From Gammaproteobacteria bacterium (lineage in GTDB: Bacteria > Pseudomonadota > Gammaproteobacteria > CBDBNL01 > JAAOII01): 64,000 nt of DNA. The notes beneath the pieces were generated by a model. That model was given only the letters and a program-made list of their open reading frames with translations, was not told where the DNA came from and made no database searches. The DNA lies in NCBI GenBank assembly GCA_965209035.1, contig OZ242372.1, forward strand, positions 224,001 to 288,000, in the 5' to 3' direction. A program made the translations under genes and the position numbers. Positions within the stretch are counted from its first letter, which is position 1; each line of letters starts with the position of its first letter. Below, piece after piece: positions 34,525-59,502 of the stretch.

Positions 34525-34658
34525 TCATTCATCTAGCTCCACATACCGAAGGCCCGTTGCCGGATCTATTTTCGACCCGTCCGACAGAACCTCCGGCCGC
34601 TTGATCTGAGGACGCACAATGCCGAACTCAGAGTCCAGAACCTTTATGAGATCATGCA
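34525..34658 (-). repeat. Dispersed ~130-bp coding-like repeat ('DSEFG' element), copy 1
   Basis: Homologous to 36201-36333 (+) and 59434-59502 (-); reads HDLIKVLDSEFGIVRPQIKRPEVLSDGSKIDPATGLRYVELDE*. Confidence 0.85.
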
Positions 34659-34728
34659 GATTTAGAAAGAATTGTTCAGGTTTATAAAAACTGCCTCAAA
34701 CTCTTATCCATTAAGAGTTTGTAAGGAA

Positions 34729-34998
34729 GTATCCGCATCTTCAGTATCCGCATCTTCGGTATCCGCATCTTCGGTATCCGCATCTTCAGTATCCGCATCT
34801 TCGGTATCCGCATCTTCAGTATCCGCATCTTCGGTATCCGCATCTTCGGTATCCGCATCTTCGGTATCCGCATCTTCGGTATCCGCATCTTCGGTATCCG
34901 CATCTTCGGTATCCGCATCTTCGGTATCCGCATCTTCGGTATCCGCATCTTCGGTATCCGCATCTTCGGTATCCGCATCTTCGGTATCCGCATCTTCG
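34729..34998. repeat. VNTR: 18 x 15-bp unit gtatccgcatcttc[g/a]
   Basis: Direct count; 270 bp; only the last base varies. Confidence 0.97.
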
Positions 34999-35008
34999 AA
35001 GCCCGGTG

Positions 35009-35040
35009 ATACAAGATCTCCCGCCCGTCATTGACCGCAG
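35009..35040. repeat. 32-bp direct repeat, copy 2
   Basis: Matches 30393-30424 with 2 mismatches. Confidence 0.8.
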
Positions 35041-35133
35041 CCCGGTAATTTTTTTGTGGTTACAACTTCCCCGATATCATTTTTGGTATTGGGGCAAAAA
35101 AATATGGGAATGCATAAAAAATACGGCAAGAGA

Positions 35134-35142
35134 TGTTATAAT
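35134..35142 (+). promoter_or_regulatory. Extended -10 promoter element (TGnTATAAT)
   Basis: tgttataat 11 nt upstream of the 35154 ATG. Confidence 0.55.
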
Positions 35143-35153
35143 TCTTACAGGTT

Positions 35154-36137
35154 ATGGGTTATTTTATGAAATTTAGAAAAATGACAAAGGAGGATATGGA
35201 CTGTAACACAGTCGCAGAAAAATCGGCGGGGAAATACAATACCGAGCGTCTGCCGGAAGTAAAGGTTAGCGTTTGGACATACATCCTATGTGCCATTGGG
35301 TTGTTTGTATTTACGGCATTTTCTACTCTTACCCTTTACGATGCCGCCCTTGCATACAATTTGATACCGGAAGGCAGTTGGTTTATTCTTTTTCTGCTCG
35401 GCTTCTTTGTGATGATCCTTGGCCTGGTCTGCGAATATGCCATAGCTTCGTTATACCTGGCTGTGGCAAAAACAAATCAAAAAATAGAAGTTAATATAGA
35501 GGAAGTAAAAGAGGAGATTACGGGAGTCAGAACTGAATTAAAAGGGGATATTGCGGGAGTCAGAACTGAACTAAAAGGGGATATTGCGGGAGTCAGAACT
35601 GGGCTAAAAGGGGATATTGCAAGAGTCAGAACTGAACTAAAAGGGGATATTGCAAGAGTCAGAACTGGGCTAAAAGGGGATATTACGGGAGTCAGAACTG
35701 AATTGGATGTTGTTGTCAAAACTTTGAAGTTGATGCTTTTGAATAAGAAAGGTGTTGCCATGCAAGTACTAATTGCCGCGGAGCATTCTCCTCTCGATAT
35801 GACAGCTCTTGGTCGGGAAACATTGGAGGAAAGTGGCATTAAAAAATATGTTGACGGCCGTTGGGAAGAATGGAGTCAGCAATTGCATGTACTCAACTTA
35901 TCCAAAAAGCATACGGGGGATCTTTACAAGATTCAAGAAGAAATTTTTTCTTTTGTGGAAGCAAACATCTCCGAGAAAGAAGATCTTGCGTCAATGATAG
36001 AAGAAATCGGTTCCTTAACCAATCTGCGCTTTCTGGCACGCCTGTATGTCCGCAACAAATTTTTTAAAGAAAACAATTGGGTGATTAAGGAAATAGACAA
36101 GTACAACCCGGCCAAGAATAAACCCGCCAAGGAGTGA
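35154..36137 (+). CDS. Membrane protein with two N-terminal TM helices and 11-residue coiled-coil repeats (KGDIAGVRTEL), paralog 1
   Basis: Two hydrophobic segments, 33-bp tandem repeats, near-identical to 36326..37204. Confidence 0.8.
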   Translation: MGYFMKFRKMTKEDMDCNTVAEKSAGKYNTERLPEVKVSVWTYILCAIGLFVFTAFSTLTLYDAALAYNLIPEGSWFILFLLGFFVMILGLVCEYAIASLYLAVAKTNQKIEVNIEEVKEEITGVRTELKGDIAGVRTELKGDIAGVRTGLKGDIARVRTELKGDIARVRTGLKGDITGVRTELDVVVKTLKLMLLNKKGVAMQVLIAAEHSPLDMTALGRETLEESGIKKYVDGRWEEWSQQLHVLNLSKKHTGDLYKIQEEIFSFVEANISEKEDLASMIEEIGSLTNLRFLARLYVRNKFFKENNWVIKEIDKYNPAKNKPAKE

Positions 36138-36200
36138 AGCAGCCCACCTTGACTTTAGAAAGCAGTTTTTATATTTTAAAAACTCTTGTATCTATAAGGG

Positions 36201-36333
36201 GCATAACCTCAGCAAGGTGCCGGACTCTGAGTTTGGGATGGTGCGCCCTCAGATCAAAGAGCCGGAGGTCCGGCCGGACGGGGTAAAAAGAGATCCGACA
36301 AGCGGCTTAAGGTATGTGAAGATAGATGAATAA
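36201..36333 (+). repeat. 'DSEFG' element, copy 2
   Basis: Reads HNLSKVPDSEFGMVRPQIKEPEVRPDGVKRDPTSGLRYVKIDE*; its stop overlaps the ATG of 36326. Confidence 0.85.
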
Positions 36334-37204
36334 GGAGGATATGGACTGTAACACAGTCGCAGAAAAATCGGCGGGGAAATACAATACCGAGCGTCTGCCG
36401 GAAGTAAAGGTTAGCGTTTGGACATACATCCTATGTGCAATTGGGTTGTTTGTATTTACGGCATTTTCTACTCTTACCCTTTACGATGCCGCCCTTGCAT
36501 ACAAGTTGATACCGGAGGGCAGTTGGTTTATTCTTTTTCTGCTCGGCTTCTTTGTGATGATCCTTGGCCTGGTCTGCGAATATGCCATAGCTTCGTTATA
36601 CCTGGCTGTGGCAAAAACAAATCAAAAAATAGAAGTTAATATAGAGGAAGTAAAAGAGGAGATTACGGGAGTCAGAACTGAACTAAAAGGGGGTATTGCA
36701 GGAGTCAGAACTGAACTAAAAGGGGATATTGCGGGAGTCAGAACAGAGATTGCGGGAGTCAGAACTGAATTGGATGTTGTTGTCAAAACTTTGAAGTTGA
36801 TGCTTTTGAATAAGAAAGGTGTTGCCATGCAAGTACTAATTGCCGCGGAGCATTCTCCTCTCGATATGACAGCTCTTGGTCGGGAAACATTGGAGGAAAG
36901 CGGCATTAAAAAATATGTTGACGGCCGTTGGGAAGAATGGAGTCAGCAATTGCATGTACTCAACCTATCCAAAAAGCATACGGGGGATCTTTATAAGATT
37001 CAAGAAGAAATTTTTTCTTTTGTGGAAGCAAACATCTCCGAGAAAGAAGATCTTGCGTCAATGATAGAAGAAATCGGTTCCTTAACCAATCTGCGCTTTC
37101 TGGCACGCCTGTATGCCCGCAACAAATTTTTTAAAGAAAACAATTGGGTCATTAAGGAAATAGACAAGTACAACCCGGCCAAAAATAAACCCGCCAAGGA
37201 GTAA
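36326..37204 (+). CDS. Membrane coiled-coil repeat protein, paralog 2 (fewer repeats)
   Basis: Near-identical to 35154..36137 except for repeat number. Confidence 0.8.
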   Translation: MNKEDMDCNTVAEKSAGKYNTERLPEVKVSVWTYILCAIGLFVFTAFSTLTLYDAALAYKLIPEGSWFILFLLGFFVMILGLVCEYAIASLYLAVAKTNQKIEVNIEEVKEEITGVRTELKGGIAGVRTELKGDIAGVRTEIAGVRTELDVVVKTLKLMLLNKKGVAMQVLIAAEHSPLDMTALGRETLEESGIKKYVDGRWEEWSQQLHVLNLSKKHTGDLYKIQEEIFSFVEANISEKEDLASMIEEIGSLTNLRFLARLYARNKFFKENNWVIKEIDKYNPAKNKPAKE

Positions 37205-37279
37205 AACCTCCCGTTGCGCTATTTGAGCGGGAACTCCGCTTCCAATTCGGCAAAAAAAGATCCCTTCCCCTCACTCAGA

Positions 37280-37535
37280 AGTCAGCCGGTGATCCCTTCA
37301 TTCGTCTGTGGGATCTTGGCACGAGCCGCCAATACCCCGTCTTGAACTGCATGCCGAGTGGTCTCTCGGCGCAAGGTAAGTAAGGTGAGAGATTAGAAGG
37401 GAAAGCGTCTAAAGCAGGCCGAAAGTGCGTTTGGCTGCTTCGGCGGTCCAAACAGATCGATTGGGCATCGATGCGGCGGCTATGAAACAGCGATGCAGCG
37501 GCTGCGAAGCAGAGACAAGTGTGCGGTGCGGCAAA
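37280..37535 (+). ncRNA. Candidate structured non-coding RNA, family not recognised
   Basis: At least five local hairpins including a C(UUCG)G tetraloop, plus long-range pairings; GC-rich tract in an AT-rich intergenic region. Confidence 0.45.
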
Positions 37536-37656
37536 GAGTACATTTTTAACAAGCCTCGATTTTTCTACCAATCGCCCGGAAAAAATTATAAAAAACACCC
37601 ATATCGGTGCATGACATTAATCACATCACCCGAAACAAAGTGTAAAATACTTAAAC

Positions 37657-37729
37657 GGACGCTTAGCTCAGCCGGAAGAGCATCGCCCTTACAAGGCGAG
37701 GGTCGCAGGTTCGATCCCTGCAGCGTCCA
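37657..37729 (+). tRNA. tRNA-Val(TAC), CCA not encoded
   Basis: Acceptor GGACGCT/AGCGTCC, anticodon arm tcgcc-cttacaa-ggcga, T-loop GGTTCGATCC. Confidence 0.95.
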
Positions 37730-37734
37730 TGGTT

Positions 37735-37811
37735 GGAGCGGTAGTTCAGTTGGTTAGAATGCTGGCCTGTCACGCCGGAGGTCGCGGGTTCGAGTCCCGT
37801 CCGCTCCGCCA
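37735..37811 (+). tRNA. tRNA-Asp(GTC)
   Basis: GGAGCGG...CCGCTCCGCCA, anticodon loop ctgtcac, T-loop GGTTCGAGTCC. Confidence 0.97.
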
Positions 37812-39055
37812 TTTTTTCTTTCGGACTCTTTATTTTTAGCGGGATCTTTATCCGGATCTTTATTTTTATTAACGCTTCTTTGCCGAAAGCCGGATTCCAA
37901 ATAGTCCGCGGAATGCATCTCAAACAGGCGGCTTAATGTTCTGCCACTTTCGCCCCCTTCTCGTCGTTCCTTACCCTTGCCGTAAAGATCGGCCAAAGAC
38001 ACAGCCGCACTCATCACCGGAATACAGCCCTCGTCATAGAGGATATCCACAAGCCAAGTAAATCTTCGCGATGCCTCCGCCAAGGCGGGATCATGAAGAG
38101 ACGGAATCTCGGATATGAACACCACGTTGAACTTTTCCGCCAGTCGCAGATAGTCTTCTTTCCCTCTGGCCGCCCGGCAAAGTTCGGAAAAACAGAACCA
38201 AATACTGTCCGAACAACGGGCAATGGCGGGAATTTTCCGCCCGCCCGCTTCCAACACAGGCGGCAGCCGGCTGCCGCAAGCGAATTTCTCATAGACATCC
38301 GATAATTTTTGGCGGGAAAGATCTGCCAGCGGGTAAAAAAACCGCTCGTCTCCCGCCAACTTTTCCCGCCGATAGTCCGCTCCGTCTCCCATATCAAATA
38401 CAATAAAAGATTTTTCTATCAGTTCAATCGTCGGCAAAAAAAGATGCCGCGCCAAACCATCCCGATACAGATCCCGGGGGGCATAGTTTGATGTCATAAT
38501 CAAGTCGGTTCCGCCGCGCAACAGTTCCGACAAAATGCGCGCCAAGATCATCGCATCGCCTATATCCGAAACATGGAATTCGTCAAAGCAGATTAACTTA
38601 AATTGCCGGGCAAGTTCTTTTGTCAGGACTGCCAAGTGATTATTCTCTTTGCCGTTGTTTTGGGACGCAAGCCTGTTCATCCCCGAATGAAAATGTCGCA
38701 TAAACGCATGAAAATGCACACGCCTCTTTTCGGGGACAGGCGTATTGAGAAAAAACTCATCCATCAAAAAGGTTTTGCCCCGGCCCACACCGCCGTGCAG
38801 GTAAATCCCGCGGGCACCGGTTCCCGTTTGCCGACCGGAATTCCGGACTAACTTTTTCCATAGCCCGCTTCCTTTGCGAGAATAATGTTCCGAGCGGGCG
38901 GCGATAAACGAATTTAAAAGTCCGGCCGCTTCTTCCTGTTTAGGATCAAACTTAAGTTTTCCCCGGCTTACAAGTTCCGAATACCAAGCGGGGGCATCAA
39001 CGGTGGCGGCGGTTAACTTCTTGGCATCCGGCACATCAGAAGAAGCCGGCATCAT
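37754..39055 (-). CDS. zapE: Cell division ATPase ZapE (AFG1 family)
   Basis: GIYLHGGVGRGKTFLMD, RVHFHAFM, CFDEFHVSDIGDAMIL, TSN, RTLSRLFEM. Confidence 0.93.
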   Translation of the reverse strand: MMPASSDVPDAKKLTAATVDAPAWYSELVSRGKLKFDPKQEEAAGLLNSFIAARSEHYSRKGSGLWKKLVRNSGRQTGTGARGIYLHGGVGRGKTFLMDEFFLNTPVPEKRRVHFHAFMRHFHSGMNRLASQNNGKENNHLAVLTKELARQFKLICFDEFHVSDIGDAMILARILSELLRGGTDLIMTSNYAPRDLYRDGLARHLFLPTIELIEKSFIVFDMGDGADYRREKLAGDERFFYPLADLSRQKLSDVYEKFACGSRLPPVLEAGGRKIPAIARCSDSIWFCFSELCRAARGKEDYLRLAEKFNVVFISEIPSLHDPALAEASRRFTWLVDILYDEGCIPVMSAAVSLADLYGKGKERREGGESGRTLSRLFEMHSADYLESGFRQRSVNKNKDPDKDPAKNKESERKNGGADGTRTRDLRRDRPAF

Positions 39056-39152
39056 TTGAAACGAAAACAGAGGGCGAGCGTTTGTGAAATCGGCCGCACA
39101 ACATCCGTCTTGGCAACCGCGAACATACCGTTAGTTGCCGGATTCAATCTTC

Positions 39153-39944
39153 TCATGCATCCGGGGCATCGGGCGGGGCAGGAATTCCGAATAGCGGCAC
39201 AGATCCCGGCGGCGAACCGTCATCATCATCCGAGTCATCGGACGGTTTGGACGGGTCGGGTGGCGGTGCGAAGCTCGGCGACGGACCGCCAGCCTCCGGA
39301 TAGCGGCGCGGCTCGGGTGTTTCCGGCGGCACCTGATCCGCAAAACAAGCAGCCTGGATATGTTCTCCCTTGACAAGAAGATGCTTAGGATCGCGAAACC
39401 GGGTATTGGGAGACGGCGGCAAGATCCTCAGCAGCTCCGTTTGTTCTTCGGCAGCAAATTCAAAAAGAGGCTCAAAATCCGTATCGCCACTTACCAAAAT
39501 AATTTTAGGATGTGTATTCCGGCAAATACTCACGGCAATTTTCAAGGCGATATTCACATCCGTTTCTTTTTCTTTATACGGTTTGTACTTCGGAATATGT
39601 TTTTTGCAATGCGGGCAACAATAACCGGCATCGCCGGACCTGGAAAACCGACCCATCACGGAGACGAACTTTTCCCCGTATCTCTTGGCATGATAGTCCG
39701 TGTAAATTTCCTGAACTTTTTGTTGTTCTTTGGAACCGGGCGACTCATAAGCCGCACTGCAATAGTAAAGTTTGTCTATTACTTCTTCTCCTTCCTTGAG
39801 ATGCCAATCGACTAATTGAAACAGATCATACCAAAGATAACTGTTATCTCCGTGGAGATATTTTTGGACAAAATCACAAACCGAGTAATACAGATTGTAA
39901 CCGTCCACAAAAACCAACACCTTTTTTTCAGTCATCTTTTGCAA
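39153..39944 (-). CDS. NYN-domain (LabA/DUF88, PIN-like) protein with CxxC insert and Pro/Asp-rich tail
   Basis: VFVDGYNLY, KEKETDVNIA, LVSGDTDF motifs; CPHC. Confidence 0.88.
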   Translation of the reverse strand: MQKMTEKKVLVFVDGYNLYYSVCDFVQKYLHGDNSYLWYDLFQLVDWHLKEGEEVIDKLYYCSAAYESPGSKEQQKVQEIYTDYHAKRYGEKFVSVMGRFSRSGDAGYCCPHCKKHIPKYKPYKEKETDVNIALKIAVSICRNTHPKIILVSGDTDFEPLFEFAAEEQTELLRILPPSPNTRFRDPKHLLVKGEHIQAACFADQVPPETPEPRRYPEAGGPSPSFAPPPDPSKPSDDSDDDDGSPPGSVPLFGIPAPPDAPDA

Positions 39945-40106
39945 TCTTCATATTATGATTTCCATTAATTTAACTGTTGCTTTTTATTATATCCAATAGC
40001 CGCCCCAATAAACTCTTTCAACATTTCTGTTCCCGTCCCCGTTCCGGCTCTCTTAATGTTTATCTCTATGTTTATCTCTGCGGAAAGAAAGAGCCTTTAT
40101 AGGTAT

Positions 40107-41621
40107 TTATTTTGTTTCTTCGCTCAGATCCAACAGATAAAAAGCAAACCTCGGGCTCGGCACCGCATACAAACTCATATTCGCGGAACCCAAATATTGC
40201 GGTGCCGTCTCCGACTGAGCCAACACGGGCGGTCTCGGATTGCGAAAACTGCCAAGGATGACAGGTTCTAACTCATCCGCGCTAAAACGCATATAAGCAT
40301 AGTGATTCTGACGCCCTGTCAAATGCCGATAAGGCAAGAGTTCCCCGGTGGCATAAGACAGGACCGCATGATCCATATAACTGCGTCCCATCAAGTGCGC
40401 ATCGGGATATTCTTCTTTCAGTTCGGATATTTTGGTTCTCAGTGAATCGTAATCAAAAAAGCGGGCGGCAAGAAGTGAATCCGTATAAGGATTGCGCCAC
40501 AATAAAATCACCCACAGACAGGCAAGAATCAACATATGAAAAGCATAATGACCCCGCAATATAACATCCGGCTGTTTTTTCCCCGTTCGGGTTACCGCGA
40601 AAAAGAGAACAACAAGAATGTAAGCGGAAAATACCATCCAATTCAATTCTATCTTGTTAGAAACGGAAAGTGCAAAAAAGAAAATAAGAGGCAGATAGCC
40701 CGCAAAAGCCAGATGCGCGAATTGCCGGTTTTGCCGGGAAAAGACAAGTCGCCAAACAACAAATGGGCCGATTGCCAACAAAAGGCCCGCCAAAACCTCG
40801 GGCAAGTAAAAGGATCCGCCGCTCAGCGATTGCCCCCGCCCCTGCCCCGCAGATTCCCGCGCCGAGTTCAGCAAATGCATCCCCTGATAGTAAAAAGAAT
40901 CACCGCTATAAACAAGGTTCCACCATAAAACGGGAGAAAAAATAAGAAATGCCAACAGCATCGCCAACCAGGGTTGCCCGCTTTGCAAAATATGACGCCG
41001 ACCGCTGCGGGTGGCAAGCACCCAAAGGAACGCAGACCCGCCCCACAGGATCGCATTGTATTTTGAAAGAAGCGCCGCCCCAAACCACAGACCGCACCAT
41101 ATCCAATCCCTGTTGCCTGTCTTTCCGCAATATGCCTTGTGAAAACTGAAGAGAAACAATGCCAAAAACAAACACAAGGGGGCATCCGGCGTCCATATCG
41201 CCGCATTCACAAAAACCATCGGTGTCACCAACATCGCATAACCAAAGAGCAATACGGATTTTCTATCCCTTGTCAGGTTAAACAACAGGCATGCCAAAAC
41301 GGCACTCGTCAAAACACCGCAGACATTGGCAAGCAAGCGCAGTTGTTCGCCGCCAATAGGTCCGCCCCCGGCAAGAGCGGACGGCAACCAGGCAACCATA
41401 GGCGGATGATCGTAATAAGACCAAGACAACCGCTGTGTCCAGGTCCAATAATAGGCCTCATCCGGATGCAGCGGCAGTTCTCGGTAAAACAAGTAACGGA
41501 AAATTAACGGCAACACAAGAAACACCAAAACAAGATGTGCGCCATATGCCGGCCGCCAAAGTCTTAAATTCGGGTAGGAGTTAATTTTTTCAAACATCAC
41601 AAACATCATTGCCAATTCCAA
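40107..41621 (-). CDS. ArnT/PMT-like (GT39/GT83) membrane glycosyltransferase
   Basis: PDEAYYWTW, YYDHPPMVAW, TPDAPL, LSKY, SPVLWWN; polytopic. Confidence 0.88.
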   Translation of the reverse strand: MELAMMFVMFEKINSYPNLRLWRPAYGAHLVLVFLVLPLIFRYLFYRELPLHPDEAYYWTWTQRLSWSYYDHPPMVAWLPSALAGGGPIGGEQLRLLANVCGVLTSAVLACLLFNLTRDRKSVLLFGYAMLVTPMVFVNAAIWTPDAPLCLFLALFLFSFHKAYCGKTGNRDWIWCGLWFGAALLSKYNAILWGGSAFLWVLATRSGRRHILQSGQPWLAMLLAFLIFSPVLWWNLVYSGDSFYYQGMHLLNSARESAGQGRGQSLSGGSFYLPEVLAGLLLAIGPFVVWRLVFSRQNRQFAHLAFAGYLPLIFFFALSVSNKIELNWMVFSAYILVVLFFAVTRTGKKQPDVILRGHYAFHMLILACLWVILLWRNPYTDSLLAARFFDYDSLRTKISELKEEYPDAHLMGRSYMDHAVLSYATGELLPYRHLTGRQNHYAYMRFSADELEPVILGSFRNPRPPVLAQSETAPQYLGSANMSLYAVPSPRFAFYLLDLSEETK

Positions 41622-41659
41622 AAAGTGCTGTCTTTCTCATCGGCGACACAAACAAGAGA

Positions 41660-42367: not shown

Positions 42368-42430
42368 TAATTTTATTATACTGATACAAACCCGTCTCGT
42401 CCCTCGCCGGAAATTTCCGGCCATCGGCAA

Positions 42431-42481
42431 GCATTTGGGGAGAACATTTGGAGAGAACATTTGGGGAGAACATTTGGAGAG
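42431..42481. repeat. 12-bp tandem repeat (catttgg[g/a]gagaa-type, about 4 copies)
   Basis: Direct inspection. Confidence 0.85.
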
Positions 42482-42539
42482 AGCATTGCGGTGCGAACAA
42501 ACACCGGGGTTTTGCTCATCGGTTCCAAAGAGCGTTTTC

Positions 42540-43562
42540 TTAAAATTCCCGCGGCAATCTCAACTTCAAACTGCGACCGGTCTTAAGAGATTCCTTTGCC
42601 ATCTGTGCCAAGTAAATAGCATTCACCCCGTCTATGGAGCGAAGTTCTTTTAAGAGTTTTTGATCCCCGGCAAGTGCCCGCACAAAACCCGTCAATTCCT
42701 GTTTATAAGATTGGGCGTATCTTTCCATAAAAAAGTGTTTTAGCGGTGCTCTGTGAATCCCGTTTTTGTTCGCCAAAATTAAATGATCCCTTTTTTGATT
42801 TGCGGTCTGCAGCATCCCTTTGGAACCAAAGATCTCTATACGCTGATCGTAACCATAGCAGGCGCGCAGACTGTTATGAATAGAAACCAAACAACCGCTT
42901 GCGGTCTTCATACTAATGAGCGCGCTGTCCGCATCTCCCGTCTCCCCCGCCTCCCCTGTGAGCGCGCCCGTTAGCACAGACGCCATTACGGCCAGACTCT
43001 CCGGCGGATCCGGCATCAAATGCAAAGCCATATCAAAATCGTGAATTGTCATGTCCATGAAAAGACCGCCCCATTGCCGGATATAAGCAAGCGGTGGCGG
43101 AGCCGGATCGCGACTGATAACCCGAATATGCTCCAAGCTGCCGACAGTTCGGATGCTCTCTTTTAGGAGAATATTGTCCCGATCAAACCTTCGATTAAAA
43201 CCGACCATCACCCTTCCGTCGTGCCGCTGGACATAAGAAGTACAATCCAACGCCTCTTGCAAGTTGCCGCACAAAGGCTTTTCACAGAAGACCGCCTTGC
43301 CGGCCCGCACCGCCCGCTTAATCATACCGCTATGTGTCGGCGTTGGCGTGCATAAAATTAAAAGGTCTGTTTTTTTATCCGCCAAAATCTCTTCCAAGTC
43401 ATGCGCCGGCGTGACATCGTATTTTTTGCACATCCGGGCAAGGAGAATCGGATTCGCTTCCGCAAGATAAGTCAGTCGGGCAGTCGGCATCACCGCAAGA
43501 TTTTCAGCGTGCAAGGAACCGATGCGTCCCAGCCCCAAAACCGCACAACCGATCGTCTTCAT
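42540..43562 (-). CDS. iolG: Inositol 2-dehydrogenase-like, diverged duplicate
   Basis: GLGRIG, FCEKP, GFNRRFD, SRDP, DMTIHDFD, YGYDQRIE; paralog of 45908..46921. Confidence 0.9.
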   Translation of the reverse strand: MKTIGCAVLGLGRIGSLHAENLAVMPTARLTYLAEANPILLARMCKKYDVTPAHDLEEILADKKTDLLILCTPTPTHSGMIKRAVRAGKAVFCEKPLCGNLQEALDCTSYVQRHDGRVMVGFNRRFDRDNILLKESIRTVGSLEHIRVISRDPAPPPLAYIRQWGGLFMDMTIHDFDMALHLMPDPPESLAVMASVLTGALTGEAGETGDADSALISMKTASGCLVSIHNSLRACYGYDQRIEIFGSKGMLQTANQKRDHLILANKNGIHRAPLKHFFMERYAQSYKQELTGFVRALAGDQKLLKELRSIDGVNAIYLAQMAKESLKTGRSLKLRLPREF

Positions 43563-45885: not shown

Positions 45886-45907
45886 TGTGATTCCAAAGAG
45901 CGTCTTC

Positions 45908-46921
45908 TTAAAATTCCTGCGGTAGTCTCAACTTCAAACTGCGACCGGCCTTAAGAGATTCCTTTGCCATCTGTGCCAAGTACATAGCGTTCACCCCGTC
46001 TATGGAACAAAGTTCTTTTAAGAGTTTTTGATCCCCCGCAAGAGCCCGGATAAAACCCGCCAATTCCTCCGTATAAGATTGGGCGTATCTTTCCAGAAAA
46101 AAGTGTTTTAAGGCCGCCCTGTGAATCCCGCTTTTGTTCGCCAAAATCAAATGATCCTTTTTTTGATTTGCGGTCTGCAGCATCCCCTTGGAACCAAAGA
46201 TCTCTATACGCTGATCGTAACCATAGCTGGCGCGCCGACTGTTATGAATAGAGACCAAACAGCCGCTTACGGTCTTCATACTAACGAGCGCGCTGTCCAT
46301 ATCGCCCGCCTCCCCTATGGACGCATCCGTCAGCACAGATGCCATTACGGTCAGTCTCTCCGGCGGATCCGGCATCAAATGCAAAGCCATATCAAAATCG
46401 TGAATTGTCATGTCCATGAAAAGGCCGCCCGATTGCCGGATATAAGCAAGCGGCGGCGGAGCCGGATCGCGGCTAATAATTTGAATATGCTCCAAGCTGC
46501 CAACAGTGCGGCTGCTCTCTTTTAGAAGAATATTATCCGGATCAAACCTGCGGTTAAAACCGACCATCATCTTGCCGCCGTGCCGCCGGACATAAGAAAC
46601 ACAATCCAACGCCTCTTGCAAACTGCCACACAAAGGCTTTTCGCAAAAGACCGCCTTGCCGGCCCGCACCGCTCGCTTAATCATACCGCTATGTGTCGGC
46701 GTCGGCGTGCATAAAACTAAAAGTTCTGTTTTTTCATCCGCCAAAATCTCTTCCAAGTTATGAGCCGGCGCAACATCGTATTTTTTGCAGATCTTGGCAA
46801 GGACACTCGGATTCTCTTCCGCAAGATAAGTCAGTCGGGCAGTCGGCATCACCGCAAGATTTGCAACATGCAAAGAGCCGATGCGACCCAGCCCCAAAAC
46901 CGCACAACCGATCGTCTTCAT
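45908..46921 (-). CDS. iolG: Inositol 2-dehydrogenase
   Basis: GLGRIG, CEKP, GFNRRFDP, SGGLFMDMTIHDFD, NSRRASYGYDQRIE. Confidence 0.93.
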   Translation of the reverse strand: MKTIGCAVLGLGRIGSLHVANLAVMPTARLTYLAEENPSVLAKICKKYDVAPAHNLEEILADEKTELLVLCTPTPTHSGMIKRAVRAGKAVFCEKPLCGSLQEALDCVSYVRRHGGKMMVGFNRRFDPDNILLKESSRTVGSLEHIQIISRDPAPPPLAYIRQSGGLFMDMTIHDFDMALHLMPDPPERLTVMASVLTDASIGEAGDMDSALVSMKTVSGCLVSIHNSRRASYGYDQRIEIFGSKGMLQTANQKKDHLILANKSGIHRAALKHFFLERYAQSYTEELAGFIRALAGDQKLLKELCSIDGVNAMYLAQMAKESLKAGRSLKLRLPQEF

Positions 46922-51094: not shown

Positions 51095-51204
51095 TTTTTA
51101 AAGGTTGAGGAGTATTGTATATAATTCCCTAAATTTAATCTCACTTTGCGGTTGCCTCGCTGCCTCGATGCCGCGATACCACACCGCAGATTCGCATTCG
51201 CATC

Positions 51205-53214
51205 TCATCGGCGACGGCGAGCGGCATGCTCGGCGGGTCGCGCCCCTGTCCAAATGTCTGTCAAGCGCAAGAAATTTTCCGATATCACGCGCACCGTCTC
51301 ATCCGCATCCGTTTCTTTTTGAAACCAAGAAAGAATCGGCGCGCCAAAAATACTTCTGCCAACGGCAAAACCCCGGCATTCGGGTTGCCGGGCGGCAATT
51401 TCTATGTCTTTTTGCAGATCTTCTATCGGTTTGTCTTTCCCGAGTAACAGCACACCGCAACAATGCGGGTCCCCGCGATTAATCACGGAACGGACATCAT
51501 CCCAATGCCCCGCAGATAAGCCGGGCAACTTCCACCAATCGGGGAAGATATCTCTTTTGTAAACTTCCTCCATTCCGCGCAACACTTCTTCGCCTTCTTC
51601 CCGAGCCGCCAAAGGATCCCGCGGCAGAATTTCCAATAACAATCTGTGCCGGGAATGCTCGCAGGCACGATAAAGTTGCCAAACTCTTTTCAATTGCAGT
51701 GCGCGCAGATGCGCCTCCTCGTCGCTCTTATAAAAAAACAAACACTTCACCAAATGCGATGCCGGAAAACTTTCAACCACATGTGCGATCGGCTCGGAAA
51801 AATCAAACTCCAAAGGATAGGATTTCGGCTTCTCTACCGGTCTGGCAATCCAAATCGGCTCTCCGGCAAGCCCAATATCCCCGCCAAGCCCGGTAGCCTG
51901 TCGCAACACATCTTCGCCGTATCTGCCGTCACAGATTAAGCCGGGTTTTAAGGATTTCTCTGTCGTTATGTTCTTCTTTGCCATTACAAACGCCTGCCAA
52001 ATCAACTTCTTGCCTTCCGCGATAGCGGCATCCGCGGGCGACAAACCCGCCTTAGCCGCCATCTCCTCAAATTGCAAACGATGGTCAAACGCCAGAATAC
52101 AGAAATCGCCGGCGCCGGCATCTCCCGCACCCGGTCTGTGCTGTCCCGTGGTTGCGTTATGCAAACGCCGAAAAGCCGGCGCGTGATCCGGAATGGCGGG
52201 CAATTGATCGCGCCGGGACATAAAATAATCCAGTTCCGGCACAGACGGAGATTCGGGGGAACATCCGTGCCTGCTCACCACAAGGGCACCCGAAGCATTG
52301 CCTTTGGTGGCACAGGTTTCCCAATCTTCGCCGCGCAAATAAGCGGACAAAAAGCCGCTCATAAACGCATCCCCCGCCCCGACCGTGTTCACAATCCCGA
52401 CCTTAAAAGACCGCCCGTTCGGCGAGAATTTTGCGGGAACCTCGCCGTCATCAATCACACAGCATCCCAATGCCCCCATCTTAAAAACAAGCGTAGCATC
52501 GGTCAGGGCGCGCACATTTTTCAGGGAAGCATAAGGATCTTCGCTGCCGCCCGCTATGTTGAATTCCTCATCCGTGCCGACTATCAGATCGCACATAGGA
52601 AGAATTTTTTGAATATTTTGAGTCACCTCCCGGTTTGCCACAAAGCGATTCTCCCCCTCACCCAAGTCCGTCAACCCCCAAAGGACGGGACGATAATCAA
52701 TATCAAAAATGATCCGGGTGCCGGCCGCGCGCGCCGCCTCTGCCGCCTTAAACAAAGCCTGTGCCGTTTCGGGTGCGGAAAGATGCACCCCGCTCAAAAG
52801 AATGGCCTTACTCTTGCCAATTGCCTCAACGGGGATATCCTCCCGACATAAGCCCATGTCCGCGCAATCCTTGCGATAATACAACAGCGGAAAGGTTTGA
52901 GAATCGCGAATGCTCAGCAGAACAAGCGTGGTTAAGCGTTTGTCATCGCGGCGAATGAACCGCGTATCCACTCCTTCACAGGCAAAGGTCTTAATCAGAT
53001 ACTCGCCCATCTGCTCCTTACCGACGCGCGAAACCATCGCCACTCGCAGTCCCAGCCGGGAGGTCCCTATGGCGATATTGGCGGGACAACCGCCGACATA
53101 CTTATTGAAAGAAAGGGCATCCTCCAGACCGCCTCCCAGTTGGTTTGAGTACAGATCCACGCCGCATCTGCCGATGCTAATCAGATCATAGTCCGTTTCC
53201 GGTGTTCGCTTCAT
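51205..53214 (-). CDS. iolC: 5-dehydro-2-deoxygluconokinase fused to DUF2090 aldolase-like domain
   Basis: GRCGVDLY, GGCPANIA, DYRPVLW, GAGDAF, LAFDHR, PDWWKL, GFAVGRSIF. Confidence 0.95.
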   Translation of the reverse strand: MKRTPETDYDLISIGRCGVDLYSNQLGGGLEDALSFNKYVGGCPANIAIGTSRLGLRVAMVSRVGKEQMGEYLIKTFACEGVDTRFIRRDDKRLTTLVLLSIRDSQTFPLLYYRKDCADMGLCREDIPVEAIGKSKAILLSGVHLSAPETAQALFKAAEAARAAGTRIIFDIDYRPVLWGLTDLGEGENRFVANREVTQNIQKILPMCDLIVGTDEEFNIAGGSEDPYASLKNVRALTDATLVFKMGALGCCVIDDGEVPAKFSPNGRSFKVGIVNTVGAGDAFMSGFLSAYLRGEDWETCATKGNASGALVVSRHGCSPESPSVPELDYFMSRRDQLPAIPDHAPAFRRLHNATTGQHRPGAGDAGAGDFCILAFDHRLQFEEMAAKAGLSPADAAIAEGKKLIWQAFVMAKKNITTEKSLKPGLICDGRYGEDVLRQATGLGGDIGLAGEPIWIARPVEKPKSYPLEFDFSEPIAHVVESFPASHLVKCLFFYKSDEEAHLRALQLKRVWQLYRACEHSRHRLLLEILPRDPLAAREEGEEVLRGMEEVYKRDIFPDWWKLPGLSAGHWDDVRSVINRGDPHCCGVLLLGKDKPIEDLQKDIEIAARQPECRGFAVGRSIFGAPILSWFQKETDADETVRVISENFLRLTDIWTGARPAEHAARRRR

Positions 53215-53263
53215 TCGTTACTCGTTACTCGTTTTTCGGTATCGCCTTCAACAAACACAAGTC

Positions 53264-54448
53264 TTATTTGTCTCGTCCCTGTCTCTGTCCGTTTTTTACT
53301 TGTATCCAAGAGGACTTCTCGGCGGAAGTCACCATAGATTCTATGACGCGTTGCACCCCCAATCCGAACTCCAGATCCGCGATGGGTTTGTGTTGCGGAT
53401 CCAGTATGGCGGAAATGAACTCACCCGCCTGAATCGTGACAAAGTTATTAAAACTCAACCCGTGGCCGGCAGCCGGACAAAAATACTTGTAAAAGCGATG
53501 TTCCGGGCCGATCAAAATACGCCTGTAGCCTTCCGTGCGCGCATCCTTGTCCCGCAGATGAACCGATACTTGGTTTAGGTTTTCCTGGTCCAATAACAAT
53601 GCCCCCTTGCTGCCGTGAATCTCCAACCGCAGATATAGTTTCCGACCGCTGGCAACATTTGCTGTCTGAAAAATCCCGCTCGGCCCCCCGGCATACTTGA
53701 TAATCGCATGGGCAATGTTATCGGTCGTCACCGGCAGCATATTGCCTTGCATATCCCGTCTTTGACGCACCGACCGACATCGCATCGCCGCCAAAGATTC
53801 GGGCATCCCTAACAGTTTCAGCAAAAGAGCAATTAAGTGATACCCCAGATCGGCGAGCGCTCCCAGATAGGCTCTTTTCTCATCACAACGCCATGTATAT
53901 AAAGCATTCGGATCGCTCATATAGTCCTGATTATGATGCGCCGAAAACGAGTAGATCTCTCCCAACTTGCCTTCCTCTATTAATTCTTTCATCAAGAATA
54001 CCGCCGGGTTTGCCAGGTAGGTAAAGCCCACCGCATTTGCCACCCGCGTCTCTCGCGCCTTTGCGACCAGATTCACACACTCATCGGTGCTCATCGCAAT
54101 CGGCTTCTCGCACAGGACATGCTTGCCCGCTTCCATCGCGAACAACGCTTGCTCGTAATGCTCCCAATCTTCCGAACCGATCAAAACCGCATCCACATCC
54201 GGGTCCTCAAGCATCTTGCGCCAATCGCCATAATGTTTTACAACCCCATAACGGGCGGCAAAGTCCGCCGCGCGGGCTGCGGTGCGCGAACTTACCGCAA
54301 ACAAACAAACATTCGTATTTAATTGAAAGGTCTCGGCAACCGTATCAAAAGCCACCGCAAAGGCGCGGGCAATGAAACCGGTGCCGATAACGGCAACATT
54401 AATGGTCTTCTTGTCAGTCGGTTTCATTTGCCGGAAATGTAAACCCAA
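53264..54448 (-). CDS. Gfo/Idh/MocA-family oxidoreductase
   Basis: IGTGFIA, HVLCEKP, VGFTY, GALADLGYH. Confidence 0.9.
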   Translation of the reverse strand: MGLHFRQMKPTDKKTINVAVIGTGFIARAFAVAFDTVAETFQLNTNVCLFAVSSRTAARAADFAARYGVVKHYGDWRKMLEDPDVDAVLIGSEDWEHYEQALFAMEAGKHVLCEKPIAMSTDECVNLVAKARETRVANAVGFTYLANPAVFLMKELIEEGKLGEIYSFSAHHNQDYMSDPNALYTWRCDEKRAYLGALADLGYHLIALLLKLLGMPESLAAMRCRSVRQRRDMQGNMLPVTTDNIAHAIIKYAGGPSGIFQTANVASGRKLYLRLEIHGSKGALLLDQENLNQVSVHLRDKDARTEGYRRILIGPEHRFYKYFCPAAGHGLSFNNFVTIQAGEFISAILDPQHKPIADLEFGLGVQRVIESMVTSAEKSSWIQVKNGQRQGRDK

Positions 54449-55635
54449 GAATTACTGTCCGCGGACTGAACCATTGCATCCGTGATGCTCTGCACCCCCT
54501 TGCCAAAATGCAGATCGGCAATCACCCGATCTCTCCCCGTAACGATGGATTCCGCGAAACAACCGTCTTGAATGATTAAAAGATCATTAAAACCCAGCCC
54601 GTGAGCGGGAGCGGGACAAAACTTGGAAAAATACTGATGCTGGGGACCGATAAAAATTCGCTTAAATCCTTCCTGTTGTCGGTCGTCTTGTCGCAGGTAA
54701 AGTTGAATTGTATTCATATCTTCCATATCAATCAAAAGGCTTCCCAGACTGCCGTTAATTTCTATCCAAATGAACTGATCCCTGCCCGTCGCCACACGAC
54801 TGACCTGAATCACCCCCGCAAGATCCTCATCATAACGAATAATGGCATTTGCCATATCATCCGAGGTCACCCGTTTCATTTGAGGGTCATTCTTGCCACC
54901 CCGTTTCTCCGTTTGCCGGGCGGTGTCGTCTCCGGCGGCCGCATTGATGCTGCGTGTCCCGCTCGCCGAACTCACCCGGCGTTGCGGAACCTTAATTTCG
55001 CGATTCGCAATTAACGATTCCGGCATACCCAGCAAGGACAACAGATAGCCCGCCACATGATAGCCAAGATCCGCCGTGGTGCCGGAACCGGCAATCTTCT
55101 CGTCACAGTGCCAGTGAAACGGCAGGTCCGGATCGCTCAGATGATCCTCATTGAAATAGGCGGTAAAGCCGTATAGTCTTCCCAACTTATTCCCGGCAAG
55201 AAGTTCCTTCGCCATAAATATGGCGGGATTGGCAAGATAAGTTAACCCCACCGCATGCCGCACGCCCTGTTTTTCCGCCAATTCACAAAGGTGCGTACAC
55301 TCGCGCAGGCTCATCGTAATCGGTTTTTCGCAAATGATATGCTTCCCCGCCAAGATGGCAGCCTTCGCCTGCTCAAAATGCAGGTAAGGCGGCGTCCCGA
55401 TCACAACGGCATTCACAGCCGGGTCGTCGATGAGAGCCCGCCAATCCTTGCAGATCTTGCGGCAATTAAAGCGTCTTGCAAAACGCTCCGCTTCTGCCGG
55501 AATATCCGAGCAGATTGCCCCAAAAGAAATATCCGCATCAATATCCATGATCTTGGCGGCGGAATTTAACGCCAGTGCGTGGGCGTTTGAGATGTAACCC
55601 GCGCCGATAAAACCGAAACAAAGGTTTTTCTTCAC
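54424..55635 (-). CDS. Gfo/Idh/MocA-family oxidoreductase
   Basis: IGAGYI, HIICEKP, DLGYH, SRVATGR, HGLGFNDL. Confidence 0.9.
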   Translation of the reverse strand: MKKNLCFGFIGAGYISNAHALALNSAAKIMDIDADISFGAICSDIPAEAERFARRFNCRKICKDWRALIDDPAVNAVVIGTPPYLHFEQAKAAILAGKHIICEKPITMSLRECTHLCELAEKQGVRHAVGLTYLANPAIFMAKELLAGNKLGRLYGFTAYFNEDHLSDPDLPFHWHCDEKIAGSGTTADLGYHVAGYLLSLLGMPESLIANREIKVPQRRVSSASGTRSINAAAGDDTARQTEKRGGKNDPQMKRVTSDDMANAIIRYDEDLAGVIQVSRVATGRDQFIWIEINGSLGSLLIDMEDMNTIQLYLRQDDRQQEGFKRIFIGPQHQYFSKFCPAPAHGLGFNDLLIIQDGCFAESIVTGRDRVIADLHFGKGVQSITDAMVQSADSNSWVYISGK

Positions 55636-55806
55636 CCTATTATTAATTGTTAATTGTTATTAAGAATCACCGGTTAGCGTTGAAAACTGAAATCCGAAAT
55701 CCGGATAGATGCCGAGCCGAATCGTCCGTGCCACCCCTATTGCCAGCATTACCCGGCTATTTGGTGTCGGCAAAAGTTGCCGGAAACGCAACAGGCAAAA
55801 AAAAGA

Positions 55807-56625
55807 TCAGTGCTTCTTTTGAGGAGAAGCATCCGACTCGTCGCCGCCTATCTCCCTCAGTTCGCGTTCCAACTCCTTAAGTTCGGCACCGCCCGCCATC
55901 ATTTCAAGAAGTTGCGCTTCGCTAATCTCTTCCTTATGGTAAAAACCGAGACTCTTGCCGCGATTCAACAAAGTAAAATCTTCGCCTATCGGAAACGCAT
56001 GATGGACATTGTGTGTAATGAGAATCACTCCTATGCCCTTGGCCCTCGCGCGGGCAACAAACTTCAGCACCAGACCGGACTGCTTGACACCCAGAGCGGC
56101 TGTCGGCTCGTCCAGAATTAACACCTTGGCGCCAAAGTAAATGGCACGGGCGATCGCCAAACACTGACGCTCGCCGCCGGACATGGTGCCGACCGCCTGT
56201 TCCGGGTCGCGAATCTTGATACCGATTTCCGCCATTTTTTCTTTGGCGATTCGGTTCGCCTTTTCCATATCCAACACACTGATGGGCCCGTATTTCTTAA
56301 CCGGCTCCCGTCCCATAAAAAAGTTGCGGGAAATACTCATCAGCGGGATCAACGCCAGGTCCTGATAAACCACTCCTATACCCATGTCCAAAGCATCGCG
56401 CGGAGAATTAAAGTTCATCTTCTTTCCTTCCATGTAAATTGCCCCCTCGCTGGGTTTATGCACACCCGCCAGGGTCTTAATCAACGTGGACTTGCCGGCG
56501 CCGTTATCTCCCAACAAGCAACAAACGCAGCCGCCCGATTCAAGAGAAAACGAAATATCTTTTAGCGCGATGACCGAGCCAAAATATTTACTGACATTTC
56601 TAAACTCAATTAATGGTGTACTCAT
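55807..56625 (-). CDS. Sugar (inositol) ABC transporter ATP-binding protein
   Basis: [26 protein letters not shown]. Confidence 0.94.
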
Positions 56626-56630
56626 AATAA

Positions 56631-57755
56631 TTACCTCGCTTCGGTTACTCGTTTACGCACAAAATCATTAAATATGACGGCAATGAGCATCATCACCCCC
56701 AGAAAAACGCGAAACCAATCCGTATCTATGCCCGTATAAAAAATCCCCGCCTGCACTGTGCCAAAAATCAACGCGCCCAAGGCCGCGCCCACCGCGCTTC
56801 CATATCCGCCGGTCAGCAGGGTCCCGCCGATCACAGTGGCAATAATCGCCTCAAACTCTTTGAGAACGCCGCGTTGTGTATCCGCGGATCCTGCGCCCAT
56901 CACCTGAACACACGCAAAAATAGTCGCCGCCATAGCCGTGATAATAAAAAGAATGATCTTCACTCTGTTCACCGGAACGCCGACATTACGGGCGGCATTG
57001 GCATCGCCGCCGACTGCAAAAATCCAGTTCCCAAACTTGGTGCGCAGCAACACCCAGGTCGCCACAAGGGTAAAAACAAGCCAGATCATCACCGACATCG
57101 GAATACCCGCCACTATGGGCTGATCGTTATTCAGGGTCTCTATCATCCCCCATTTTGCCAGGGCCGTAAAGAGACCTTGAAAAAGATCCGCATCAAAAAA
57201 CCTGCCCAGAAAATCCTTTTCCACATGCTCCGTCAACCCGCTAATCTGGGTGCGCCCCGTAATCAAACGAGTCAAAGCAATCGTCAGACCGCGCAGTATA
57301 AAAAGCATTGCCAGAGTCACAATGAACGATGGCAACTTGGTTCTGATCACCAGCATACCGTTGATATAGCCCACCATCACGGCACAGCCAAAGGCAAAGA
57401 AAATGGAAGACCAAAGCGGCCATCCCCAAACCGTTGTCGGTATTGCAATGCAAATACCCGCAAACCCTATCATAGAGCCTACCGACAGATCAAACTCTCC
57501 GCCGATCATCAACAAGGCGGCCGCAACCGCTATGATGCCCAACTCAGCCGACCATTCCAAAAAATTAATAGTGCCAAGGGCGGAAAACATCCCGGTCCCT
57601 CCTTGGGCAACTTCCAATATCCCGAAAAACAGAAAAACCAACATCGTGCCGGCTAAAGCGCCGAACTCCGGCCGATTCAGCAGTTTCCTAAACAAGGAAA
57701 TCTTACGAACCCGCTCGTCTGTGTTGTTATTGCTTACCGAAGCCGTATCTTGCAT
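56631..57755 (-). CDS. Sugar (inositol) ABC transporter permease
   Basis: [37 protein letters not shown]. Confidence 0.94.
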
Positions 57756-57779
57756 GATTTTTTTGTAATTGTTAAAAAA

Positions 57780-57809
57780 GAAGAGGGGACCCATATGGGT
57801 CCCTTCTTC
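57780..57809. terminator. Intergenic hairpin between binding-protein and permease genes (stabiliser or attenuator)
   Basis: gaagaggggaccc-atat-gggtcccttctt. Confidence 0.6.
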
Positions 57810-57821
57810 AGATGTCAAAGA

Positions 57822-58751
57822 TTAACGATAGCCTTTCTTGGCTGCCGCAATCACTTGCTTGGCGTTGTCCTTGGTAACAAACCCCGGACCCGTCAAAATA
57901 AGACCCGAAGGCAACACACCCCACTTGACATATTGCGCTATGATGGCAACAGGCAAGTAGCCCTGCAGATAGGGTTGCTGGTCTATCAGGAAAGTCATTT
58001 CTCCCTTTGAGGTCGCTTGCAATGTGGAATCCGCCAGGTCAAACGAGCCAAATTGGATCTTGCCAACCAGCCCGAGTTCCTTCAAAGCCGCCAAACTCGG
58101 TTCGGCGGAAAGAGGACCCAAGGTCAAAATACCGTCAATTGTCTTGTCGCGTCTCAGTGCGGCTGTTACCGCAGTCCGAACGGCAGTCGGATCATTGCTT
58201 ACCGCAACGACTCGCAGTTTTCCGCCCAGACCCTTCTTGAAACCTTCGCAGCGCAAGTCCAACGCAACATTACCCACCTCGTGGTTAATGCAAAGCGCGT
58301 TCTTGACACCGGATGCCTTCATTCTTTCGCCGCCGCCCAAACCGGCTTCATATTCGGTTTGGCCCACATGCGCTTGAAGTCCCAGTTTCTTGTAAACATC
58401 GCTGCCGGAATTAATTGAGATAACCGGAATACCGGCCGCAACGGCACGACGAATGGAATCACCGAGAGCGTCCGCATCCGGAATGCTCACAATAATACCG
58501 TCCGGTTTTTGCGCAACCGCAGTGTCAATCAATTTGGACATTTCGGACATATCAAAAGTTGCCGGTGCCCTGTATTGTGCCCGAATATCCGCGTCTTTGG
58601 CGGCGCTGTCAACGCCGTTTTTAACGATGTTCCAAAACGGATCATTTGCTTGGCCGTGTGTAACAACGATGACTCTTCCGGCGGCAAATGCACTGCCACC
58701 AAAAATTGCCATGGATGCCACCAGGACCAAAAGTATGTTTTTTATTTTCAT
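57822..58751 (-). CDS. Sugar (inositol) ABC transporter periplasmic binding protein
   Basis: Signal peptide AFA; HGQANDPFW, GQTEY, DQQPYLQGY. Confidence 0.93.
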   Translation of the reverse strand: MKIKNILLVLVASMAIFGGSAFAAGRVIVVTHGQANDPFWNIVKNGVDSAAKDADIRAQYRAPATFDMSEMSKLIDTAVAQKPDGIIVSIPDADALGDSIRRAVAAGIPVISINSGSDVYKKLGLQAHVGQTEYEAGLGGGERMKASGVKNALCINHEVGNVALDLRCEGFKKGLGGKLRVVAVSNDPTAVRTAVTAALRRDKTIDGILTLGPLSAEPSLAALKELGLVGKIQFGSFDLADSTLQATSKGEMTFLIDQQPYLQGYLPVAIIAQYVKWGVLPSGLILTGPGFVTKDNAKQVIAAAKKGYR

Positions 58752-59088
58752 AATGTTTTACTCCTTATAAAGGTAAATATAAATAATAATATAGTAATTT
58801 CTTATTGTATGGGAAGCGGATCTTTCCCGCAGTCCTTGTTTTTTACGGTTTTTTTACGGAATTTCTATTTTTTACAAACTTCCGGGAATTTTTACAAATT
58901 GAAGCGTTTTGTTTTGAAGCGTCTTAATTCTTTTGACGCGCATTAAAAAAACTTAAAACGGCACTGCCGCGCTTCCGCGCTGCCTCATTTTCGCCCAATA
59001 ACCCGGAGGGACCCGGCGACCAAGCCGATATCCCGGTTTGCGGGTTAGCGGATTAACCGGATTAGCGGGTTATGTTATGAGCGATTAG

Positions 59089-59376
59089 TTAAAATGACAT
59101 CTCGTGCCGCCCGCCGGACAAGGCGGGGCAAGGCGGGACAAGGCGCAGCAACGGTAAGGTATTGCTGTTGCCGAAATCCCATATGCCGAGGCTCCAACCG
59201 GCATAGGCGGTTCCGGATGTCGGGGTTGCACTTTGCAAGATATCGATAGCACGGGCTTGTGTTTCTTGAGAAGAGTTCGAAAAACCCGCATTTGGATCGC
59301 CCGGGGCGCGACTGGCGTTGTAATAAGAAGCAGTTAAAGATGCGGAGCCTCCTTGCAGACCCACCTGTGAATTCAA
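59089..59376 (-). pseudogene. C-terminal fragment of a GLUG-type surface protein
   Basis: ASYYNA...LQSATPTSGTAYAGWS.GIWDFGNSNTLPLL resembles the C-terminus of 30917..33070 (ASYWN...LRTP...IYEVW...WNLGT..YPAL). Confidence 0.6.
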
Positions 59377-59433
59377 CCTTCCGGTGCAACACCGGTTGCT
59401 AAATTATAATCCACTCCGGTCGCTTCTGAGAAG

Positions 59434-59502
59434 ACCTCGGCTGCTTGATCTGAGGACGCACAATGCCAAACTCAGAGTCCGGAGCCTTTATGAGATCATG
59501 CA
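59434..59502 (-). repeat. 'DSEFG' element, copy 3 (truncated)
   Basis: About 65/70 nt identical to 34589-34658 by manual alignment. Confidence 0.85.

Follow-up and report, generated by a model that had tools for sequence, protein, structure and literature searches.

Insertion sequences (ISs) of the IS481 family, as one published account describes them, have tips reading TGT...ACA and duplicate 2-15 base pairs (bp) of target DNA, mostly 6 (PMC10045372). A mobile insertion cassette (MIC), as a second account defines it, has the inverted repeats of an IS and a target duplication, lacks a transposase gene and carries a passenger with its own promoter (PMC3913671). Here we analyze a repeated segment of about 130 bp in a gammaproteobacterial genome (assembly GCA_965209035.1), within a stretch of 64,000 nucleotides (nt) of contig OZ242372.1 (positions 224,001 to 288,000), hereafter called the window. 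A first-pass annotation had described the segment as a three-copy, coding-like element standing beside membrane genes with KGD repeats. We conclude that it is very probably the left terminal segment of an IS481-family IS, made up of an inverted repeat of ~34 nt plus the initial 100 nt of the 5' leader; that it is most likely not a hidden gene; and that truncated versions of this IS carry a family of membrane genes.

The IS shares several features with the IS481 family. It has one DDE (rve) transposase with an N-terminal helix-turn-helix, for which IS481 is the best hidden Markov model; its inverted repeats end in ...ACA; it makes a short target duplication; and it has a single open reading frame (ORF) without a frameshift. 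Unlike most members, for which 6 bp is given (PMC10045372), it duplicates 5 bp. At 354 nt, its leader exceeds that of the relatives examined by ~220 nt.

Other described systems invite comparison with the derivatives of this IS. A 1196-bp element elsewhere in the genome has all four defining features of MICs such as MIC231 of Bacillus cereus and mic-qnrD of Proteeae. Unlike MIC231, its parent is IS481-like and not IS231, which is a relative of IS4, and its passenger is a lineage-restricted membrane coiled-coil protein rather than an enzyme or resistance gene. Most passenger copies here also depart from the MIC model, lying in tandem arrays with left ends only between genes. Three 96-100-bp fusions of left and right ends recall miniature inverted-repeat transposable elements (MITEs), which arise from an IS through internal deletion; no target duplication flanks any of them, and two of the three sit within one tandem duplication. 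Finally, array units that start at the left tip and end unlike the right end resemble the one-ended mobilization of ISEcp1, in which an IS end is used with surrogate right ends. We draw a resemblance only: ISEcp1 belongs to family IS1380, whereas the IS here is IS481-like, and the array units were found to lack flanking duplications.

An IS481-like insertion sequence and its left end

All three homologous segments reported by the first-pass annotation were recovered by a repeat search and a three-way alignment. The search paired 34527-34657 with 36201-36331 (131 nt, inverted, 79% identity) and 34594-34658 with 59438-59502 (65 nt, direct, 94%). Copy 1 is part of an IS that is intact and inserted recently. 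Copy 2, a left end within a tandem array of a lineage-specific membrane coiled-coil gene, is older and has diverged, and copy 3 is a broken-off solo left end:

33355..33359, minus strand: right-hand AAATC of the 5-bp target-site duplication
33360..34658, minus strand: full-length IS481-like insertion sequence of 1299 bp, left tip at 34658 and right tip at 33360, delimited by genome BLAST
33360..34304, minus strand: transposase gene of 315 codons, starting ATG (MSKTTK), with Pfam and NCBIfam matches; alternative upstream ATG at 34388
34525..34658, minus strand: copy 1 of the repeated segment, IS positions 1-134, left inverted repeat followed by the start of the leader
34659..34663, minus strand: left-hand AAATC (minus-strand reading) of the 5-bp target-site duplication
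36201..36333, plus strand: copy 2, a diverged IS left end (L131) at 79% identity, preceding the ribosome-binding site of KGD gene 2
59434..59502, minus strand: copy 3, a solo truncated IS left end, IS positions 1-~69, at 93-94% identity
~59503..59551, minus strand: another left-end-like piece, degenerate, immediately upstream of copy 3, recognized by alignment and in an ORF translation as MHDPGKVLKSECDASS before VHDLIKAPDSEFG

We searched the whole genome (2.24 Mb, 2 contigs) for the element. Window positions 33201-34800 gave 151 BLAST matches, of which 20 were full-length (~1300 nt, 94.2-100% identity), and all 20 start at the position equivalent to window 34658. Perfect 5-bp target duplications flank 14 of the 20, and the window IS is 100% identical to the full copies at 460700, 680636 and 1606686. 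Lining up the junctions of the copies placed the tips at TGCATGATCTCA... on the left and ...GGGATCATACA on the right. The element is therefore not limited to three copies, as had been thought: copy 2 as query has 42 genome matches, a more sensitive search returns ~72 left-end-like matches, and the window itself holds a fourth, degenerate end at ~59503-59551. A stricter scan for tips counted 39 left and 67 right.

The left inverted repeat occupies IS positions 1-~34 (TGCATGATCTCA...TTCTGGACT), with the leader behind it. Eleven of the 13 outermost bases are complementary between the two ends, whose tips read TGCATG...CATACA, so that the inverted repeats are imperfect; the inner motif TTCTGGACT is present in both ends by eye and also in distant IS relatives. 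The segment is thus the 5' terminal part of the IS, upstream of the transposase gene, and not the 3' end of an unrecognized gene family. A further suggestion, that the segment might be debris from a transposase C-terminus, fits copy 3, though as a leftover IS end and not as a transposase C-terminus.

The transposase matches Pfam rve_3 (9.5e-14), rve (4.6e-8) and HTH_32, and among NCBIfam profiles it matches NF033577 (IS481) best (1.1e-50, 172.8 bits, profile positions 9-283 of 284), with IS3 the runner-up at 99.4 bits. A single open transposase frame of 315-343 codons runs through each of the 20 full copies, with no layout of a programmed frameshift. Within the IS the frame meets no stop: its translation closes with ...GWDHT and reaches the right tip exactly on a codon boundary, and in the window the stop lies in flanking DNA at 33312. 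In a 1304-bp subfamily, a 5-nt insertion puts GGAGG 9 nt ahead of the upstream transposase ATG.

The closest annotated relative of the transposase is ISKpn28 of Klebsiella plasmids (35-36% identity), and among the matches listed from metagenome and genome collections, identity to full-length proteins does not exceed 43%. The tip TGCAT(A/G)AT, an inner T(T/C)T(G/A)GACTC and an open-ended ...GW.HT frame recur in metagenomic relatives whose transposases are 34-43% identical; in these relatives 124-136 nt separate the tip from the transposase start. Judged from its sequence, the IS appears to be a previously undescribed, very active and distant new member of the IS481 family.

Left ends, gene arrays and a transposase-less cassette

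Three genes had been grouped as KGD-repeat neighbors of the segment, and they fall into two families:

35196..36137, plus strand: KGD gene 1, 313 residues, with its own promoter-like region containing TGTTATAAT
36341..37204, plus strand: KGD gene 2, 287 residues, a 98% paralogue that has fewer repeats and stands behind copy 2
59725..60279, plus strand: third 'KGD' gene, 184 residues, of a separate family, with a coiled coil of 7-residue repeats and a C-terminal membrane helix

For the protein of KGD gene 1, two membrane helices are predicted; it also has 11-residue repeats and a conserved helical C-terminal domain. A tblastn search found 14 members of its family in the genome. Thirteen, of 263-316 residues, are intact, and most of the variation among them lies in how many 7- or 11-residue coiled-coil repeats they have; the fourteenth consists of a 3' half joined to 207 nt of IS left end. 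Homology between KGD genes 1 and 2 starts at AAGGAGGAT, followed by the ATG at 35196 or 36341. The stop of copy 2 had been read as overlapping the start of the next gene, but 36326 is probably not that start, and the homology points to the ATG at 36341.

The family is restricted in its distribution. Among 1.84 billion representative proteins, full-length matches formed two clusters, its own and one at 37% identity (286 residues), which from identity and length alone is probably that of this genome's cassette-type paralogues; the remaining matches in the protein collections cover only the repeats. No NCBIfam or PADLOC family matched the KGD protein, and its best Atlas score, 0.75, is merely a lead. 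An AlphaFold model built with 13 paralogues has a mean pLDDT of 55.1, and a VIA-align comparison with 48,161 chains gave no Z >=8, only generic helical matches.

An IS left end lies directly upstream and on the same strand for 11 of the 14 members. These are spread over seven loci, so the associations represent fewer than eleven independent events. The proposed link between segment and KGD genes therefore holds for the family of the 35196 and 36341 genes but not for the gene at 59725, and the proposed proximity holds in orientation only for copy 2, which is upstream on the same strand; copies 1 and 3 are directed away from the neighboring KGD gene. The family of the 59725 gene has 4 tblastn matches genome-wide. 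Among the matches listed only the window's gene adjoins a left end, and a weak match at ~320 kb sits behind MITE-like pieces. The divergent adjacency of this gene and copy 3 is probably incidental. Positions 59545-59598, which adjoin the solo IS ends, are a 54-nt repeat of 60169-60222 in the 3' end, the membrane-helix part, of the same gene; this suggests an IS-associated deletion of an earlier tandem gene copy.

One member of the family lies in a complete cassette. The 1196-bp element at G000:C1:1606671->1605476 consists of a 41-nt left end, a gene with its own promoter region and a 124-nt right end, flanked on both sides by the target duplication ATCAT, 5 bp like that of the parent IS. Its ends match those of the IS at 93-97% identity over the left 41 nt and 92% over the right 124 nt. 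Only the last 44 transposase codons are left, and an intact 286-residue KGD paralogue lies inside. Because it combines both IS ends, no transposase gene, a passenger with a promoter and the ATCAT duplication, this element appears to be an MIC on IS481-type ends. Only one complete copy of it was found in the genome.

The other loci are tandem arrays. Intact paralogues occupy G000:C1:157759-162059, 457417-460751 and 2066379-2069454, and window 35196-37204. In the arrays each internal unit begins at the left tip; a right end lies on the far side in some arrays and in others there is none, and no array has a matching target duplication. The window array runs from its own promoter through gene 1, 63 nt and a 131-nt left end to gene 2. 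Copy 2 is cut exactly ahead of the AAGGAGG ribosome-binding site of KGD gene 2, and units of this type occur three times in the genome (in the window and at G000:C1:2067361 and 2068494), each directly before the AAGGAGG-ATG of a KGD paralogue. Within 1.5 kb of either window KGD gene, or of any of the three located at 2066-2069 kb, there is no right-end match, and at both loci homology ends 32 nt past the last stop codon, with unrelated DNA beyond. One TTGACT-17-TATTTT promoter-type site lies at 36149-36177, upstream of copy 2; a scan for promoters and terminators gave 5 of each, where 5.7 and 5.1 were expected, and hence no enrichment.

These observations suggest how the family may have spread. 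Transposase made by the 20 intact copies would act in trans, binding the shared ends and moving the cassettes. Movement could proceed by copy-out/paste-in, the mechanism proposed for IS3/IS481 relatives. The arrays would have grown afterwards, through unequal recombination or one-ended events. The first-pass annotation had offered, as one possibility, a mobilization anchor that travels with the membrane proteins. This idea survives in part: the segment is a transposon end, one family is tied to it and one complete cassette exists.

Left ends stand before genes in three architectures: a 41-nt end before the gene's promoter, a 131-nt end placed on the ribosome-binding site, and a 96-bp fusion, which belongs to a second family at ~320 kb. 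A bolder proposal, which we hold to be unlikely, is that left ends are more than debris: heading array units in these three ways, they would let the IS481-like transposase repeatedly mobilize or amplify cargo from one end, and the 131-nt end would provide a translated leader peptide coupled to the following gene.

The left+right fusions, 96-100 bp long, join a left end of 41-51 nt to a right end of 45 nt, and two of the three are parts of one tandem duplication. At G000:C1:319850-321050 we observed a tandem duplication of ~570 bp whose unit comprises a 96-bp fusion, a promoter-like site with TGTTATAAT and a small coiled-coil gene. The small genes there carry a C-terminal membrane helix, and no duplications are present at their fusions.

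Coding potential of the left end

Several observations weigh against the segment being simply an IS481-type end that carries genes. The transposase's 172.8 bits fall below the NCBIfam curated equivalog cut-off of 224, and the left tip is TGC instead of the family's usual TGT; the metagenomic relatives show the same TGC/TGT asymmetry. None of the three left+right fusions has a target duplication; the array at 157.7-162 kb has both types of end and no matching duplication; and copy 2 with KGD gene 2, having neither right end nor target duplication, is no demonstrable cassette. The remaining points concern codons. Between copies 1 and 2 the ratio of nonsynonymous to synonymous change (pN/pS) is 0.48 in frame versus 1.36 and 2.11 in the other sense frames, and 13 or fewer residue changes arose in 0.7% of 20,000 random placements of an equal number of changes (P ~0.007). 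In 29 distinct left ends, third-position changes at IS positions 35-65 number 16, against 8 and 8 at the other two, and some left-end indels (+6, +27, -21) are multiples of three.

These last points would be expected if the left end encoded a small protein of ~30-45 residues that acts on transposition, starting at an internal GTG or ATG or at a start formed at the tip. Copies 1 and 2 do keep one reading frame, as first noted: 30 of 134 bases and 13 of 44 residues differ between HDLIKVLDSEFGIVRPQIKRPEVLSDGSKIDPATGLRYVELDE and HNLSKVPDSEFGMVRPQIKEPEVRPDGVKRDPTSGLRYVKIDE, each followed by a stop, and frame 3 of copy 1 stays open for 44 codons to a TGA. Across 10 pairs of left ends pN/pS ranges from 0.35 to 1.01; in 9 of the 10 it is 0.35-0.87 and usually below the other two frames. 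The wobble excess at positions 35-65 is of the kind CAG ATC AAG versus CAA ATT AAA. A gene caller predicted a peptide beginning MHDLIK... on another contig (P0003). A start could also arise at the tip, where the flanking base plus TG makes NTG: the base gives ATG, GTG or TTG in 15 of the 20 full copies, and at an abutted right-left junction A plus TG makes ATG, with GGTGG 8 nt upstream in the right end.

Other evidence makes a small protein improbable. Within the IS there is neither a ribosome-binding site nor a canonical start. The first-pass annotation had seen no convincing start, and indeed copy 1 has no ATG; its sole candidate is an internal GTG without a Shine-Dalgarno match, and where copy 2 reads GTG, most left-end copies have GTT CCG or GTT CTG. 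Positions 66-134 show no periodicity, with 32/35/30 changes at codon positions 1/2/3 among the same 29 left ends, and in other copies, themselves degenerate, the frame is disrupted by indels of +17 and +7. Conservation of positions 35-134 is no better than that of the non-coding leader behind, at 135-354 (75/94, 85/92, 96/98, 94/92, 88/87 and 81/72% in six copies). The transposed cassette retains merely 41 nt of the segment. Reads from a second sample with the same species label match the inverted repeat and the transposase at 90-99% identity but leave 34426-34572 almost uncovered, in a mapping at a 90% identity threshold that may hide diverged reads.

Database searches agree with this picture. 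No longer protein containing the peptide was found, none of 18 candidates from a 5.8-billion-protein collection having scored, and it was absent from 40 relatives at E<0.1, where chance matches at E 0.3-0.9 fell within long unrelated frames. Nor was it present in the metagenomic IS relatives at 34-43% transposase identity, in which the frame from the tip is open for 12-25 codons in four and for 91 in one G+C-rich case. The only matches were P0002, from the genome itself, and P0003, a 37-residue prediction at 79% identity. No Pfam family matched the peptide, and Rfam gave only two tRNAs above threshold. The conserved "LDSE" can be explained at the DNA level, since the relatives share the inner T(T/C)T(G/A)GACTC motif. 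Selection on a peptide, as first proposed, thus has the pN/pS of copies 1 and 2 on its side, and against it the lack of periodicity at 66-134, of a start and of homologues outside. The coding signal in the left end is real but weak, and the codon-like pattern is most likely a small-sample effect plus inverted-repeat constraint, with no translated gene.

Two further coding arrangements were tried and rejected. An antisense frame that matches the wobble positions is interrupted at IS position ~50 by a stop that all five copies compared share. In addition, copy-1-type ends contain two ATGA stop-start overlaps, at IS positions 131-274 and from 272 (window 34528-34385 and 34388, minus strand), which join the left-end frame to a 47-codon frame and this in turn to the upstream ATG of the transposase frame. 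Codon-position counts in the 47-codon frame are flat (for example 4/4/5, 3/3/4 and 9/9/8) and it has indels of 1 nt and 11 nt; it was therefore treated as non-coding, and a chain of coupled ORFs was discarded.

We give very little weight to the idea that the transposase frame runs on into the left-end frame across a circle or tandem junction, yielding a longer transposase from the intermediate only. The transposase frame is indeed stop-free up to the right tip and ends there in register, and the left-end frame is open from the tip onward. However, the frames join only with a spacer of 1, 4 or 7 nt, and the two tandem junctions in the genome, one with the 5-nt spacer ATTTG and one lacking its last A, meet TGA or TAA within the left repeat. 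Two contig sets and one raw-read run searched with 33250-34700 gave only the joints already in the assembly, and the IS relatives lack the peptide.

Equally hard to credit is that the segment is the conserved 3' end of a host gene family or an inversion/excision switch site of the KGD genes: although KGD gene 1 lies between copies 1 and 2, which are inverted repeats over 131 nt and share a 12-nt identity at near-equal distance upstream (P ~0.004 by shuffling), copy 1 is continuous with an IS that has identical full copies elsewhere, the parent ORF is absent from the genome and databases, a 131-nt match at 79% identity is ill suited to homologous inversion, and besides the DDE transposase no recombinase gene was seen adjoining the segment. 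We set the flank homology aside, a single 12-nt identity being too small a basis.

Neighboring repeats and significance

The window holds further repeats around the IS481-like element and the KGD genes. Positions 34729-35000, which lie in the interval from the IS to the promoter region of KGD gene 1, contain ~18 near-perfect 15-bp units (GGTATCCGCATCTTC). A 48-nt sequence (ATACAA.ATCTCCCGCCCG.CATTGACCGCAG...) occurs twice in the genome, both times in the window (30393-30440 and 35009-35056), and each copy adjoins a tandem repeat, of 10/11-bp units at 30427-30576 and of the 15-bp units at 34729-35000. Farther away, 25898-26015 contains ~10 copies of an 8-bp unit (TACTCCAC-like). Comparison of 42523-43237 with 45891-46596 shows two stretches of ~300 nt repeated 3.36 kb apart at 89-91% identity, and hence a duplicated gene or operon piece there.

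Reading the segment as an IS481-type left end removes a false lead, since no hidden gene family stands behind it. In its place it documents an IS481-like element that appears very active, its 20 intact copies being accompanied by well over a hundred fragments in a genome of 2.24 Mb, and what would be a natural example of an MIC with IS481-type ends. The cargo family is found full-length only in this lineage among the 1.84 billion representative proteins, and its repeat number varies among 13 intact paralogues; it is therefore a candidate for a membrane function under diversifying pressure. The arrays offer a small test case of transposon ends aiding gene amplification.

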